Shown here: piece by piece, positions 2,548 to 20,298 of the stretch
Layout: each line of letters starts with the position of its first letter
Numbering within the stretch: position 1 is the stretch's first letter
Source: a virus
Lineage: Duplodnaviria > Caudoviricetes
Virus record (IMG/VR): IMGVR_UViG_3300017933_000003
Span: 15,653-79,652 of that record
Reading direction: 5' to 3' (one strand)
DNA length: 64,000 nucleotides
The notes under the pieces: model-generated
The model's database searches: none
What the model was told of the DNA's origin: nothing
Seen by the model: only the letters and a program-made list of their open reading frames with translations
Position numbers and translations under genes: made by a program

Positions 2548-3093
2548 ATGAGCACGAAGAAATGCACTCAATGCGGTATTGAAAAAGAATTTTCGGAATT
2601 TAGCCCGAAAGGTAATGGTAAATACGCCAGTCGATGTAAAATTTGTATCGCCGCTAATAAACGCGTAAAATATGTTAGGCACCCAGGGGCGACCCGTCCT
2701 CCTGTTTTAGAAGGAGATACTAAGCGGTGTCGAATCTGTTTAGAAGTGAAAGATATAAGTGAGTTTTATTCTAATAATGGATGTGGCACCCATAGAAATG
2801 AATGCAAATCTTGCCTAATAGACAAAAGAAAAAAGAAATACGATCAAACGCGCCAAATTTTATGGAACTATCTAAAAGAGCATCCGTGTGTAGATTGTAG
2901 TGAAGACGATCCGCTCGTTTTGGAATTTGACCATATTTCGAATAAATTTCAAGAAATTAGTGATCTAATAAGAAATGGATATAATGTAGAAACGATTTTC
3001 AAAGAGATTGAAAAGTGTGAAGTAAGATGTGCCAATTGTCATCGCAGAAAAACTGCGATTCAACTCAATTGGTATAAAGATGTGCAAAAGTAA
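2548..3093 (+). CDS. HNH homing endonuclease
   Basis: repeated CxxC fingers; CVDC...LEFDH...CEVRCANCHRRKT; ATG 2548 preferred over track start inside tRNA. Confidence 0.85.
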   Translation: MSTKKCTQCGIEKEFSEFSPKGNGKYASRCKICIAANKRVKYVRHPGATRPPVLEGDTKRCRICLEVKDISEFYSNNGCGTHRNECKSCLIDKRKKKYDQTRQILWNYLKEHPCVDCSEDDPLVLEFDHISNKFQEISDLIRNGYNVETIFKEIEKCEVRCANCHRRKTAIQLNWYKDVQK

Positions 3094-15649: not shown

Positions 15650-15683
15650 CGAAGTTCAGTGAATTATTTGGCATCACTGAACC

Positions 15684-16004
15684 ATGTTTCAAGTTTGGTC
15701 TAAAGTCAAAGTCATAGCTTCCGATCTTGTTGGTGATTCTAACACCAAATATTATGGAAATGCGAAGCTTGCAATAATCAGTTATAGTACTGGAACATTT
15801 AGACGCGTCGGATCTTCTGGATTTTCTAGAAAGAGACTTACTTTAAGGATGAGAAAATCTGAGTTCAAATTCCATAATAGTCAAGAGGCTAGATTTGAAA
15901 TTTACACTCCTGATGAGGAATTTCTAATTACTAGGTGGGGCGCAGTTGTTCAAGCATATAGGAACACTGTGATAGTAGAGTTGGAGCCAGTTAATTTATA
16001 TTAA
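15684..16004 (+). CDS. hypothetical protein
   Basis: ORF track. Confidence 0.55.
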   Translation: MFQVWSKVKVIASDLVGDSNTKYYGNAKLAIISYSTGTFRRVGSSGFSRKRLTLRMRKSEFKFHNSQEARFEIYTPDEEFLITRWGAVVQAYRNTVIVELEPVNLY

Positions 16005-16724
16005 ACCAATAGACCGATAACTATAGTATCGAATAATGGACTTTGCTTTATTTTGCTTCCTGTTAAGAACTATTTTATATTTCCCACCATAAATTTGTTC
16101 GGCAAATTTTTTACAATGCTGCCCTCCTATAGACATTTGGTATAGTTGATTTTTGGCGGTGATTATATCTCCATTCATCATTTTATGATCTTGCATTTTT
16201 ACTTCGTAAATATGAGACATGATATCATATGTTTCTAATAATGTTTTTTGCATCGAATATATAAATGATTTACTGGCAGAATATAATTGTGCCCTTGGTT
16301 CTAAATATCCGTTTGATCTATGAGAGAGTGAGATAGAACCATCTCCATCCCAGCATCCTCGAATAAAGTCAGACAAATAAATATTAGGTAATTGTGGAAA
16401 TTGAACAGTTAATGTTTTATTAGGAGTACAATTGTTAGCAACTAACCATTCTCCTATTTTAGTGTTATGTAATCTAAGTCGTAAACATTTGCTATTTGTA
16501 GCAGGAACTAAAGGTAAATTTTTCCCACATAATTTAGATAGTTTTTTAATCCAATTATGATCTGCAGATTTTAGTTCACAGCTATAATAGATTTTATCAA
16601 TAGAGTGTGATTTTTGATATGAGACATTTCCGTCAGTAATAAAAACACCTAGCAAATAATATGAAATGTCATTTTCGTTTGTAAATGATTTTATGTTATA
16701 AATAAATTTATTATTATTTGTCAT
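15996..16724 (-). CDS. LAGLIDADG homing endonuclease
   Basis: YLLGVFITDGN, FIRGCWDGDGS. Confidence 0.9.
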   Translation of the reverse strand: MTNNNKFIYNIKSFTNENDISYYLLGVFITDGNVSYQKSHSIDKIYYSCELKSADHNWIKKLSKLCGKNLPLVPATNSKCLRLRLHNTKIGEWLVANNCTPNKTLTVQFPQLPNIYLSDFIRGCWDGDGSISLSHRSNGYLEPRAQLYSASKSFIYSMQKTLLETYDIMSHIYEVKMQDHKMMNGDIITAKNQLYQMSIGGQHCKKFAEQIYGGKYKIVLNRKQNKAKSIIRYYSYRSIGLI

Positions 16725-16768
16725 ATTCCGTTCTCCTGGACCATATACTAATATATCGTCATATTAGC

Positions 16769-17311
16769 ATGACAGGAGAAAATAAATTCAAAGTGTATGG
16801 ACCGTACCGTCGTCAGTCTGATGGTCGTTCTATTGTTGTCGTAGTTGATGATAATGGTGATACGCAAACTATTTCCTACCCAAAATGGTTGTTGGAAATG
16901 CAATTGGGACGTAAATTAGATCCCAATACCGAGACCGTGGATCACTGGGACTCTAATAAAGAGAACAATGATTTATCTAATCTTCGTATTGTTCCTCGTG
17001 AAGAGCATTCTGCTAATGATACGCGTCGAGTCAAACCTGTCAAATTTAATTGTGCTTGGTGTAAAAAGGAATTTGAAAGGTCTCCTCGTTTAGTGAGAGA
17101 TAAGGCTCGCAAAAATAAAGCGGGCCCCTTCTGTTCTAGGAAGTGTGCGGGTCAATATAGCCGCAAGTTACAACTCAAACTGATCGATAAGTTTGATACA
17201 CAACCAGTTGTAGATAGTGAATATTACAAGAAGAAATATGTTAAAGCTTACGCTCCGCTGATTAGTAGTGATGATTTGATTGATTATTTGTGCGACGTGT
17301 GGGACGAGTAA
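16769..17311 (+). CDS. HNH homing endonuclease
   Basis: TVDHWDSNKENNDLSNL; CAWC and FCSRKC. Confidence 0.85.
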   Translation: MTGENKFKVYGPYRRQSDGRSIVVVVDDNGDTQTISYPKWLLEMQLGRKLDPNTETVDHWDSNKENNDLSNLRIVPREEHSANDTRRVKPVKFNCAWCKKEFERSPRLVRDKARKNKAGPFCSRKCAGQYSRKLQLKLIDKFDTQPVVDSEYYKKKYVKAYAPLISSDDLIDYLCDVWDE

Positions 17312-17330: not shown

Positions 17331-17358
17331 TTGACTCCGTCCCCGGAATGATTATATT
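17331..17358 (+). promoter_or_regulatory. sigma70-like promoter
   Basis: TTGACT-16 nt-TATATT upstream of 17403. Confidence 0.5.
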
Positions 17359-17402: not shown

Positions 17403-17915
17403 ATGTCTGATAAGGTAACTATTGCGCAAGCTTTACGCCGAATTAAGAAACTCAAGGGGCAAATTGCGGAACATAGCACCCGTGCTCAACAAGGTGTCAG
17501 TTATGTTCAGGGTAAGACTCCTGCTTTCCGTTTTGCGGAAGCTGTTAATGCTTTGCGTACAGCTCGCCAAGAGATGCTAGATTTGGAAGCTAGGGTTGCC
17601 TTAGCTAATGCTAAGAAGACGGTGACTAATGCCCTGGGCAATAAGATTACGCTAGCTCAAGCTATTCGTCAGCTTCAAGAGTGGAAAGGAGAAATTGCCT
17701 TTCTTCGTAGTTTGAATCTGCGTTCAGAAATAGTTCGTGAGCGCGAGCAGAATTGGGATGAAGAGCAGATGAAGCACATCACTCGTGTTATGGAAGTGGC
17801 TTATGTGTCTGACCTTACTGAACAGGAGCGTGATGTCCAGATCAAATCTTTTCAAGATGCATTTGAAGATTTGAATAACCTCGTTGAGGAAGCTAACCAC
17901 ACGGTGTTGGTCTAA
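17403..17915 (+). CDS. coiled-coil protein (DIP1984/DUF6847-like)
   Basis: internally repeated TIAQALRRIKKL / TLAQAIRQLQEW and DLNNLVEEANHT end; AAAGGA SD. Confidence 0.65.
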   Translation: MSDKVTIAQALRRIKKLKGQIAEHSTRAQQGVSYVQGKTPAFRFAEAVNALRTARQEMLDLEARVALANAKKTVTNALGNKITLAQAIRQLQEWKGEIAFLRSLNLRSEIVREREQNWDEEQMKHITRVMEVAYVSDLTEQERDVQIKSFQDAFEDLNNLVEEANHTVLV

Positions 17916-17942
17916 AGATTCGCCCACAAGGGGCAAAGGACT

Positions 17943-18250
17943 AGGGTACGGAACGTAGCACCTAGGTAACTGGGATCCCTCCTCCAAAGGAAATGTCCTC
18001 GGACATTTAATTGGAACCGTTGTTATCTTCGGATACCAACAATAAACAAAGGCGCCCTGAAGGCATTACTTCGCTATCGATGCCGATAAAACCATCCAGC
18101 AATAATAAGCTGGTTAGCTGTTAGCAATTATAGCATCTGTAGCACTCAGCCCTGATAGGCAACCCCGAAAGGGTTGCGATGGGTAAGCAATGAGTTCTAA
18201 GCAGGAAGCATTTGTTCACCAGCTTACTAACGTACGAAACTTCGTACCCT
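17943..18250 (+). ncRNA. ~310-nt structured RNA with periodic AGC units
   Basis: 10-bp closing helix AGGGTACGGA/TTCGTACCCT, UUCG and GAAA hairpins, 11 AGC trinucleotides in 18098-18223. Confidence 0.7.
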
Positions 18251-18269
18251 ATTATTTTTATACTTGAAT

Positions 18270-18309
18270 GAAGTTAGCTGGGCAATCGCTGGATAACTAG
18301 AGGAAAGTT
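18270..18309 (+). pseudogene. truncated 5' fragment of an RNase P RNA
   Basis: GAAGTTAGCTGGGCAATCGCT...GAGGAAAGT directly upstream of the full copy. Confidence 0.6.
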
Positions 18310-18325
18310 CATTGAATAATAAAAT

Positions 18326-18687
18326 GTAGAGTAGCTCGGGTAATCGCTACATAATATGTAGAGGAAAGTACGGGCTTTATAGGACAAGATGCTGGTTAAC
18401 GACCAGATACAGTAATGTAATGGAAAGTGCAACAGAAAATACAACGCCAACTGATAAGACCTAGTCTTATAAAGGGCAAGTGTGAAAAGGCGAGGTAATA
18501 GCTCACCGCATTTACAGTGATGTAAATGGCAAGTGCAAACCCCATCTAAAGCAAGGCAAACAGTAAACGCTTGAGGGCTGTCCGTCCAATGTTTACGGGT
18601 TGCTGCTTGAGTCAATAAGTAATTATTGACCTAGATTAATGATTGCCTGATTTTATACACAGAACCCGTCTTATAGGGCTGCTCTAC
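18326..18687 (+). ncRNA. rnpB: RNase P RNA
   Basis: GAGGAAAGTACGGGC, GGAAAGTGCAACAGAAA, AAACCCC..AGCAAG, ACAGAACCCGTCTTA; P1 GTAGAGTAGCTC/GGGCTGCTCTAC. Confidence 0.93.
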
Positions 18688-19102
18688 TTTTTCTATAATT
18701 AATAATGGCTGTTACTGCAATTTTAGTTTCCTCAACTGTAAGAAAATTATTTCTTATTGAATTGCATTGTTTACAACAAGGTAAAACGTTATCAACAGTA
18801 TATCCTTTAGTATTATCTATTCTGTCTAATCCAGATCCATATTTAGATTTTGCAGCAAAGAAGTCTTCACAATAATAACAAGGTTTAGAAATCAATTTTG
18901 CATATTCATCAATAGTAATTGCCCACTCTTTATGAATTTTAATGCCTCTTTGTTTAGATTTTGCAAAACGAGATCCAATTTTTTGTTGTTGTTTAGATGC
19001 AGCCTCTTTGACTTGTGGTGTTTGTTGGTAACATTTTTTACATATTGGACCAGTATACCACTGATAGCTTTCGTGTGTTCCGCATTTAATGCACGCTTTC
19101 AT
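18671..19102 (-). CDS. HNH homing endonuclease
   Basis: PCYYC...GLDRIDNTKGYTVDNVLPCCKQCN. Confidence 0.85.
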   Translation of the reverse strand: MKACIKCGTHESYQWYTGPICKKCYQQTPQVKEAASKQQQKIGSRFAKSKQRGIKIHKEWAITIDEYAKLISKPCYYCEDFFAAKSKYGSGLDRIDNTKGYTVDNVLPCCKQCNSIRNNFLTVEETKIAVTAIINYRKSRAAL

Positions 19103-19165: not shown

Positions 19166-19663
19166 ATGAAAAATAAAAATCCCATCACTAAAGGACCCAT
19201 CACCAAGGGACTTGTAGTCGATTGGCAAGAAGCTCGCGAGAAAGCCGATCAACTTGAAGATAAAATAACTGATCGACTTGATTACGTTATTCAAACTATT
19301 TTTGACGCCTTTGGCGTTATATTATACACCTGGTATTTTGGTGATGCAGCACAAGGAGAATTAGGTTCTCTCACTTGGGATGAACCAGAAATATTTATGG
19401 TTTGGGACGCTTCATCTCATGAAGAATTTATCATCCTCGACAGAGATGGGAACGAATTGATAATGGAAGGATCGGTACCTACCCGTTGGCTCTTCCAATC
19501 TTTCGAAGAAGAGCTAAGAGACGGCAAAAGAAAATATGAGGAGCAGGAGTCAGCTCGATTGGCGAAAGTTCTTTCTGTTAAGGAAGCTACTAAAAAGTTA
19601 GCTGCCAGTGCCAAAAAGAAGTTGACCAAAGAAGAGCTAGCAGCCATCAAGAAAACTTTATGA
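19166..19663 (+). CDS. hypothetical protein
   Basis: ORF, start at MKNKNP. Confidence 0.7.
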   Translation: MKNKNPITKGPITKGLVVDWQEAREKADQLEDKITDRLDYVIQTIFDAFGVILYTWYFGDAAQGELGSLTWDEPEIFMVWDASSHEEFIILDRDGNELIMEGSVPTRWLFQSFEEELRDGKRKYEEQESARLAKVLSVKEATKKLAASAKKKLTKEELAAIKKTL

Positions 19664-20298
19664 AAATCAAACTAGCTTACCCTAAAATACCTGATACCTT
19701 GCATTGTCCACTTAAAAACTGTATAGCATTTGAGAAGATAGATGGAACGTGTTTGCATTTTGTCTGGTCTCCTGAACATGGTTTCCACAGTTTTGGAACT
19801 CGAAGGGATCGATTCACTTATATTGATGCTAGCTTTGCTCAGTTTCATCAGGATCATCCCGGGCTGAACGGGTTGGAACCAGCCTTCCAGAAAATCGAGC
19901 AGCCACTGTCAGATTTTCTGATCAAAAATTACTATAGCACCAAAGAAGTTATCATCTTCACCGAATTCCACGGACCTCACTCTTTTGCTGGCACCCACAA
20001 CCTTAAAGAGGAAAAGAAGCTGACCCTCTTCGATGTGCAGGTAGATGGGGCGATGCTGGCGCCAGATGAATTTATAAAACTGTTTGAGCCCTTTGGCGTC
20101 CCCAAGGTGGTCTTTCGGGGAAAGTTCACTGGGCAGCTCTTTATGGATGTGCGCAGCGGCAAGTATCCCGTTGCTGAAGGTGTGGTGGTTAAAGGCATGG
20201 TAGATGGTCAAGTCTATATGGCTAAGATAAAGACGAACGCTTATTTGGCAAAATTGAAGAATCAATTTAAGGATAATTGGCGAGAATATTGGGAATAA
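19660..20298 (+). CDS. ATP-dependent RNA ligase-like nucleotidyltransferase
   Basis: motifs I FEKIDGT, III FTEFHG, IIIa LFDV, IV EGVVVK, V KIK. Confidence 0.8.
   Translation: MKIKLAYPKIPDTLHCPLKNCIAFEKIDGTCLHFVWSPEHGFHSFGTRRDRFTYIDASFAQFHQDHPGLNGLEPAFQKIEQPLSDFLIKNYYSTKEVIIFTEFHGPHSFAGTHNLKEEKKLTLFDVQVDGAMLAPDEFIKLFEPFGVPKVVFRGKFTGQLFMDVRSGKYPVAEGVVVKGMVDGQVYMAKIKTNAYLAKLKNQFKDNWREYWE

Follow-up and report, generated by a model that had tools for sequence, protein, structure and literature searches.

Positions 17943 to 18252 on the plus strand of the window, a 64,000-nt stretch of viral DNA (positions 15,653 to 79,652 of the IMG/VR virus record IMGVR_UViG_3300017933_000003), encode a real, conserved and structured non-coding RNA of about 310 nt. 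The RNA is placed directly behind the gene of a 170-aa protein with a modelled DIP1984/DUF6847 fold and directly ahead of a phage-encoded RNase P RNA. Its ends are paired with each other, and it carries a tract of degenerate 7-nt units (heptads) built around AGC. With moderate confidence, this closed heptad-repeat RNA is regarded as the dedicated partner of the protein, in which about five protein dimers would occupy ten units and form a particle of defined size. The source record of 79.6 kb was rated 18% complete by CheckV, and the window is therefore a fragment of the genome of a huge phage.

With the protein as starting point, relatives were gathered in viral contigs, metagenomes and species genomes and by look-up of exact proteins. 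Linkage was counted over distinct loci with enough downstream DNA (n = 27; protein identity 100 to 32%). A sequence-only reading of the locus had proposed an undescribed pair of protein and non-coding RNA and had made it depend on whether homologous genes are followed by a structured RNA with periodic motifs. An RNA of 173 to 320 nt with closing stem and AGC-unit tract was present behind the gene in all 27 loci, down to the lowest identity. It was missing only from the classical DIP1984 gene on the Acinetobacter plasmid pMMA2, behind which neither a repeat RNA nor an array was found. The features shared among the loci were the closing stem, hairpins capped by UUCG/CUCG or GNRA loops with compensatory changes, a YCG-AUnn-YGAUA hairpin, the heptad tract and an end motif.

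The loci came from huge phages, from phages rich in AT and from bacterial contigs rich in GC. RNase P RNA came directly after the RNA in the huge-phage group, whose place was taken by a transfer RNA (tRNA) or an open reading frame (ORF) in the AT-rich phages L026, L027, L041 and L173. The GC-rich contigs had cellular neighbours (glycosyltransferases, a TrmB-type regulator), and two genomes were labelled Patescibacteria, a candidate phylum in which the gene was rare (2 of 301 sampled genomes). At five of five GC-rich cellular loci, a TrmB-family regulator gene was located 0.7 to 1.8 kb upstream and on the same strand as the DIP1984-like gene.

Folding of the segment was compared with dinucleotide shuffles (z -4.5; none of 100 shuffles as good). 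The 10-bp end pairing named in the sequence-only reading was recovered, as were its three hairpins (17991-18008, 18019-18040 and 18159-18177). Covariation was assessed on a 19-sequence MAFFT alignment with a hand-written structure of five helices and 500 shuffles. Pairing was found in 83.2% of the alignment cells compared with 75.9% in shuffles, and 23 of the 32 pairs were changed on both sides compared with 8.9 in shuffles; neither value was reached by any of the 500 shuffles. When partners were slid as a control, pairing fell to 32-47%. Helix 4, the CGAU..GAUA hairpin, had no double changes and varied by G-C/G-U only, which indicates conservation as sequence; it was kept even in GC-rich bacterial relatives. 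The results for the other four helices are given with the positions of all features in Table 1.

The two-part closing stem, 22 to 42 bp long, connected the 5' end with the stretch immediately behind the array in each of the 27 sequences. Closing-stem sequences were unrelated between lineages (AGAAUACGCAAA/UUUGCGUAUUCU in L037; wholly different in L041, L173, L174, L032 and L031). Its energy was compared with dinucleotide shuffles of the 3' strand, giving z values of -1.2 to -6.0, and 12 of 27 sequences beat all 200 shuffles. In L014 and L026, the 5' strand of the inner stem P2 can pair solely with the 3' CCAGC/CCAAC strand. Because the closing stem was stabler on the strand of the gene in 21 of 27 sequences (sums -936 versus -804 kcal/mol) and C-UUCG-G loops numbered 13 on that strand versus 2 on the other, the RNA is most probably transcribed from the strand that also encodes the protein and the RNase P RNA.

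Local hairpins can form at both strands of the outer stem P1. The 5' strand alternatively folds into GUACG-loop-CGUAC (17943-17962), and in L037 (positions 3035-3060) the local 5' hairpin changes along with P1 (UACGC...GCGUA); the 3' strand can take part in a terminator-like hairpin (Table 1). As judged from these sequences, the competing hairpins may reflect stepwise folding or a conformational switch. Pairing of the ACAAA of the 5' domain with the terminal UUUGU looked good by eye in L003, L014, L019, L021 and L026; in an automatic duplex search it was inconsistent and not significant. A search with the pattern TAAGCAGGAAGCATTTGT gave a single chance match inside a coding region (L006), and the pattern was rejected.

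By cmscan at gathering thresholds, no Rfam family was assigned to this RNA in the whole window. At E values up to 10, only the RNase P RNA and noise were obtained over positions 17800-18750. A blastn search of the locus against cultured phages gave no match, and no literature description of this RNA was found.

Within positions 18098-18223, AGC occurs 11 times, compared with 1.6 occurrences predicted from the window average (796 AGC in 64 kb). The sequence-only reading had described this tract as AGC trinucleotides spaced mostly 7-10 nt apart; the eleven copies were confirmed, and the description was corrected to a degenerate 7-nt repeat that is interrupted by a hairpin. Among the relatives, 94 of about 200 AGC-to-AGC gaps were exactly 7 nt long, against a window background of 1.6%, and the remaining gaps in the tracts were mostly 8-10 or 14-16 nt. 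The repeat unit is NNU(U/A/C)AGC, of which only the U at position -2 (68-78% of units) and the AGC were kept. In most lineages the tract was 75-78 nt long and comprised about ten units plus the end motif. Other insertions than that of the window were present in the arrays of L004, L009, L015 and L035. The tract is not coding, since a 7-nt period is combined with freely varying spacers. A 9-bp helix had also been noted in the sequence-only reading. The complementarity exists, between TAAGCTGGT (18106-18114) and ACCAGCTTA (18218-18226), but local pairing is more probable: GCTGG (18109-18113) would pair with CCAGC (18096-18100), and the 3' CCAGC then with the 5' CTGG at 17970-17973.

Table 1. Positions of the module, its parts and its surroundings. 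Positions refer to the window unless a contig is named; P1 to P5 denote helices of the heptad RNA.
Feature	Position	Strand	Evidence or remarks
LAGLIDADG gene and two HNH endonuclease genes around the module	15996-16724, 16718-17311, 18671-19102	-, +, -	
Promoter-like site TTGACT-16-TATATT (sigma-70-like)	17331-17358	+	Consensus match upstream of the protein gene
Gene of 170-aa DIP1984-fold protein	17403-17915	+	ORF, hidden Markov model, AlphaFold2 model, structural match
N-terminal basic helix TIAQALRRIKKLKG	within 17403-17915	+	Invariant in the close family
Small hairpin GCCC-ACAA-GGGC between stop codon and RNA	17922-17934	+	GNRA-type loops in relatives
Heptad RNA	17943-18252	+	Folding, covariation, linkage
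Outer closing stem P1, 5' strand, AGGGTACGGA	17943-17952	+	Pairs with TTCGTACCCT; helix 1, 10/12 pairs changed on both sides
Inner closing stem P2, 5' strand, GUAA-CUGG	17966-17973	+	Closing-stem pairing
Hairpin P3 (CCU / AGG)	17977-17991	+	Helix 2, 3/4 pairs with double changes
Hairpin P4, AAAUGUC-CUCG-GACAUUU	17991-18008	+	Helix 3, 5/6 pairs with double changes; UUCG or CUCG loops in relatives
Extra UUCG-capped hairpin	18019-18040	+	Variable insertion point of the 5' domain
Hairpin P5 (GCC-CUGAA-GGC)	18054-18064	+	Folding
Sequence-conserved hairpin UAUCG-AUGC-CGAUA (motif YCGAUnnYGAUA)	18075-18088	+	Helix 4
Hairpin CCAGC / GCUGG just before the array	18096-18113	+	Helix 5, 5/5 pairs with double changes
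Heptad array, first part	18112-18150	+	Five units ending in AGC: GGUUAGC, UGUUAGC, AAUUAUAGC, AUCUGUAGC, ACUCAGC
Lineage-specific hairpin within the array, core GCAACCC-CGAAA-GGGUUGC	18150-18183	+	Folding; not in most relatives
Heptad array, second part	18184-18209	+	UAAGC, degenerate AGU unit, UCUAAGC, AGGAAGC
Terminal motif of the array, AGCAUUUGUUCA	18207-18218	+	Family consensus AGCAYUUGUUAA; directly followed by the closing stem's 3' strand
Inner closing stem P2, 3' strand, CCAG(C)UUAC	18219-18227	+	Closing-stem pairing
Terminator-like local hairpin GUACGAA-AC-UUCGUAC with U-rich run	18232-18247	+	Competes with P1
Outer closing stem P1, 3' strand, TTCGTACCCT	18241-18250	+	Partner of 17943-17952
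RNase P RNA, bacterial type A, phage-encoded	18328-18689	+	281.3 bits (gathering score 100 bits), full model, positions 1-367
RNA ligase gene	19660-20298	+	Pfam RNA_ligase PF09414; conserved downstream of the module in 12 huge-phage loci
TrmB-family regulator genes, examples in other contigs	L028:2-742; L046:2498-3247; L172:741-1505		
AGC heptad arrays, examples in other contigs	L095:969-1013 and 1768-1833; L192; L233; L236		

Two similar helices, TIAQALRRIKKL and TLAQAIRQLQEW, were found within the 170-aa protein, in agreement with the internal repeat seen in the sequence-only reading. The resemblance to DIP1984/DUF6847 stated there was borne out by structure. Matches to the profile models of the family extended over the whole length of the protein and were weak, with scores below the cut-offs (PF20935, DUF6847, 20.0 bits versus 27; NF038048, NCBIfam DIP1984, 28.5 bits versus 70). 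Precomputed PF20935 matches existed on a few close relatives. The AlphaFold2 model, for which 26 homologues were used, had a predicted local distance difference test score (pLDDT) of 91.3. Its top match and only clear structural relative was 3KDQ, both by Foldseek (E 4.5e-4, TM 0.69/0.76) and by VIA (Z 14.0, root-mean-square deviation 3.7, alignment of 149 out of 152 residues; Z 9.0 for the next row). 3KDQ is the crystal structure of a DIP1984 family protein of Corynebacterium diphtheriae, function unknown. By the model, the fold is that of DIP1984/DUF6847, and four long helices plus beta hairpins are shared with 3KDQ.

When solved structures were searched by sequence, no significant match to the protein was obtained. 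A profile search of 1.8 billion cluster representatives gave 385 clusters at E <= 0.001, 282 of these at E <= 1e-10, and the nearest clusters were mostly viral by Atlas label. A tblastn search of the window protein against phages and plasmids gave no match. Conservation in the protein is highest in its basic N-terminal helix TIAQALRRxKKLKG, which was kept down to 32% overall identity. The phage subfamily differs from DIP1984/DUF6847, with which it has the overall fold in common, by this basic helix and by the RNA behind the gene; the classical protein of plasmid pMMA2 is without the motif AQALRRxKKLKG. The name 'tail fiber protein' of PHROG 1491 (26.5 bits) was not accepted as a functional assignment, being the name of a helical-protein family that was carried into annotations of a sister subfamily. 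For the classical plasmid DIP1984 family, 'septicolysin' is a frequent mislabel.

The oligomer was predicted by modelling of four copies, which scored 0.56, compared with 0.01 for the best of three controls. Of proteins with known structures, 20 of 30 one-chain pairs and 1 of 23 single chains attained this mark; as the homologue 3KDQ has been solved, the pass of the window protein may reflect memorisation by the predictor. Contact agreement across runs was at least 64%, and the pLDDT of the partner was at least 82. The predicted interface was symmetric, comprised residues 25-36, 43-45, 55-71, 83-108 and 132-138, and left the N-terminal helix free. The protein is thus predicted to be a symmetric dimer.

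A sister subfamily was recognised at L260, where a distant DIP1984-like ORF lies beside a heptad array; the ORF was joined to the family of the window by iterative profile search. The L260 ORF had tblastn matches in 363 cultured-phage records. Their carriers included T5-like phages, Bacillus phage Hobo, Vibrio phage Brizo, Escherichia phage 4MG, Pseudomonas phage KIL1 and Lactococcus phage AM1, in which the gene is often annotated as 'tail fiber protein'. In six of six examined records, the gene was followed by a gap of 365-500 nt without annotated genes, often among tRNA genes. These gaps had a period-7 signal with lineage-specific units (UUUAAGU, nAAAGUU, UUAUAGU). The repeat unit differs by protein clade, as would be the case for units read by the encoded protein.

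A distant DIP1984-like ORF was also present at the array locus L210 of the sister subfamily. Between this gene and its heptad array, on the strand of the gene and among tRNA genes, an 85-nt piece matched the model of RAGATH-27 (RF03100) at 51.1 bits, below the gathering score of 76.1. RAGATH-27 is an orphan candidate small RNA, and its model includes neither closing stem nor repeat. It was found neither in the T5-like record at E values up to 1 nor in window positions 17800-18750 at E values up to 10.

The following course is proposed. The RNA is probably co-transcribed with the upstream gene and cut from a transcript that runs on into the RNase P RNA. The promoter-like site which the sequence-only reading had placed upstream of the protein gene exists, and no sigma-70-like site was found by consensus scan between ORF, heptad RNA and RNase P RNA; such sites are as many in the region as chance predicts, so that the scan carries no statistical weight. 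In the two AT-rich phages L027 and L173, the 3' strand of the RNA is immediately followed by a tRNA or a tRNA-like sequence; for this reason RNase P cleavage could define the 3' end of the RNA there. The predicted symmetric dimers, with their free and invariant basic N-terminal helices, would be loaded cooperatively on the AGC units, and about five of them on ten units would give a ribonucleoprotein particle of defined size. A filament in which subunits bind successive AGC units had been suggested in the sequence-only reading. A fixed number of about ten units, the closed loop and the predicted symmetric dimer fit a defined-size particle better than an open filament.

The logic would be that of CsrA/RsmE on CsrB/RsmZ, or of TRAP. 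The sponge RNAs CsrB and RsmZ carry GGA motifs in hairpin loops, which are bound by CsrA/RsmE dimers. By analogy, the heptad RNA is likewise a structured RNA with many copies of a short motif, and a small homodimer is proposed here, with several dimers per RNA. In contrast to these systems, AGC stands in a phased 7-nt tract, the protein has no CsrA fold, the gene is adjacent and the number of units is fixed. No match to a CsrB/Rsm covariance model was obtained, and the candidate partner has the DIP1984 fold. TRAP reads about 11 (G/U)AG triplets, and HutP sites are UAG-N4, with a 7-nt period; both act in leader-RNA attenuation and are beta-rich ring proteins. Phased trinucleotides with free spacers and, by analogy, a defined-size oligomer as reader would be common to these systems and the present one, which differs in its helical protein and in a free-standing closed RNA placed after the gene.

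Several results weigh against a dedicated partnership of this kind. L004 has an intact RNA beside a protein gene shortened to about 116 codons (L004:3001-3342; compensatory changes GCUGAU/AUCAGC in the RNA), so that the RNA can persist without a full-length partner, or this copy is decaying. The second internal repeat of the protein sits in the predicted dimer interface, which argues against a correspondence of one repeat to one unit. No recognised RNA-binding domain was found in the protein. Thermodynamic folding gave no sign that the array is more open than the remaining RNA (unpaired probability 0.43 versus 0.40; mean z versus shuffles -0.6). Similar AGC heptad arrays were obtained by pattern scans in many viral contigs without this protein, and the heptad repeat alone is thus not specific to it.

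It is possible, yet rather unlikely, that the RNA is real and independent of the neighbouring protein: a stable RNA or 3' untranslated element that binds or titrates a host factor, or a control of termination or processing before the next RNA gene. The position within clusters of RNA genes agrees with this, RNase P RNA following directly or, in L027 and L173, a tRNA. So do the U-rich run after the 3' strand of P1 with the terminator-like hairpin competing with P1, the covarying local 5' hairpin of L037, which suggests a conformational switch, and the retention of the RNA beside the truncated gene of L004. However, the RNA was kept behind the gene also where no RNase P RNA or tRNA follows, cellular contigs included, and at none of the 27 loci was gene or RNA seen alone. 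Furthermore, a unit that differs by protein clade is not expected for a universal host factor.

The arrays of the other contigs raise the question of whether the tract acts as duplex DNA. Arrays of 5-16 heptads, NNCAAGC or NNTCAGC, were observed in other phage contigs (L048-L167, L178-L262) without a protein of the A1 family, which is that of the window; two loci of the second scan carried the distant DIP1984-like ORF described above. They occur in both orientations, ahead of TTGACA/TATAAT-like promoters and start codons. Some flank a GP88-family gene near the gene of the small terminase subunit, some are followed by inverted copies and are able to form long imperfect hairpins, and more than ten arrays were present in one 34-kb contig. 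From their sequences, these arrays look like DNA-level iterons or plain tandem repeats. The AGC-heptad pattern scans returned mostly unrelated arrays and plain 7-bp tandem repeats and were unusable for counting this RNA. The omega repressor binds 7-bp heptads. Iterons serving as operator, partition or packaging site for a DNA-binding protein are nevertheless an improbable explanation of the tract in the window: its orientation relative to the gene is constant, its length is fixed and its asymmetric end motif is conserved. The enclosing helices, with compensatory changes, G-U pairs and UUCG loops, have features of RNA only, and no second array was found in the 79.6-kb record.

A module like type III toxin-antitoxin systems, in which the repeat RNA would neutralise the neighbouring protein by binding several copies, is very improbable. 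In ToxIN-like type III systems, tandem RNA repeats of about 34-45 nt are located upstream of an endoribonuclease toxin gene. The tight linkage of a protein gene to an adjacent repeat-bearing RNA would suit such a module, as would the sporadic occurrence in cellular genomes of one candidate phylum and in phages, which is like that of mobile modules. In contrast, the units here measure 7 nt instead of about 36 nt, the RNA is placed behind the gene instead of before it, and the protein is a helical bundle for which neither Foldseek nor VIA gave a nuclease-like match; no PADLOC defence family was found above noise. Membership in the ToxIN-like class was rejected on these grounds.

A diverged known RNA (transfer-messenger RNA (tmRNA), signal recognition particle RNA, 6S RNA, Y RNA, riboswitch leader) or a short coding region can practically be dismissed, even though closed ends with a single-stranded middle recall tmRNA and Y RNA and two relatives have a short open frame across part of the array, because ARAGORN and Rfam gave no tmRNA, the stem reads G3-C and not G3-U70, a T arm of the GGUUCGAAUCC type is lacking, no Rfam covariance model, Y RNA and YrlA included, matched the heptad RNA at E values up to 10 (search over 17800-18750), and no reading frame has a 7-nt period with freely varying spacers.

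The RNase P RNA is a separate gene that begins 76 nt downstream of the heptad RNA, and the same order was found in the huge-phage relatives. In L004, about 330 nt lie between the two RNAs, and the RNase P RNA is enlarged by an insertion of some 170 nt. The spacer that follows the heptad RNA contains, about 60 nt ahead of the true RNase P RNA gene, a second and degenerate version of its 5' part (82-88% identical; 18280-18308 versus 18338-18369). This version covers helices P1-P3 of the RNase P RNA and GAGGAAAGU of its P4, and could have been left behind by a duplication or by recombination where the two RNA genes meet.

The gene order in the huge-phage group was HNH endonuclease, protein, RNA, RNase P RNA and RNA ligase, with the RNA ligase within about 1-2.3 kb of the start of the protein gene (12 loci). 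The HNH gene upstream of the DIP1984-like gene was present in 11 loci, distant AT-rich phages included. At least 18 tRNA genes and several homing-endonuclease genes are present in the window. Rfam tRNA matches at 1647-1765, 1170-1249 and 1318-1409 were not in the ARAGORN list; one of these Rfam-only matches is 119 nt long and probably has an insertion or intron. Among the public runs carrying the stretch, the DNA of the window was found in wetland and aquatic DNA metagenome runs only, and no RNA run was among them.

The most likely field of action of the protein and its candidate RNA partner is, by association, RNA processing, repair or protection during infection, because the module lies among tRNA genes and beside RNase P RNA and an RNA ligase. 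Ro60 (Rsr) and Y RNA occur in bacterial RNA-repair operons with the RtcB ligase. A protein and a closed-stem non-coding RNA beside an RNA ligase and RNA-processing functions (here RNase P RNA, ligase and tRNAs) are common to both cases, whereas no Y RNA model matched here and the ligase belongs to PF09414 and not to RtcB. Tentatively, the DIP1984-like protein and the heptad RNA may represent a new class of ribonucleoprotein which acts on damaged or unprocessed RNA, is widespread in large phages, T5-like phages included, and is scattered in bacteria. As an example, it could serve as scaffold or decoy that shields the tRNA supply of the phage from tRNA-cutting defences of the host, analogous to Ro60 and Y RNA with unrelated parts.

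If the pairing is real, it would provide the first functional handle, an RNA partner with a simple and mutable recognition code, for a family known only as a crystal structure and often mislabelled 'tail fiber protein'. The module is present in hundreds of sequenced phages, among them cultivable phages of E. coli, Bacillus, Vibrio and Lactococcus, and is thus directly testable. A fixed number of short phased RNA units would, if true, be a new example of a length-measured protein-RNA assembly. By its surroundings of phage tRNA genes, RNase P RNA and RNA ligases, the module is connected with the upkeep of translation and RNA repair by large phages against host defences.

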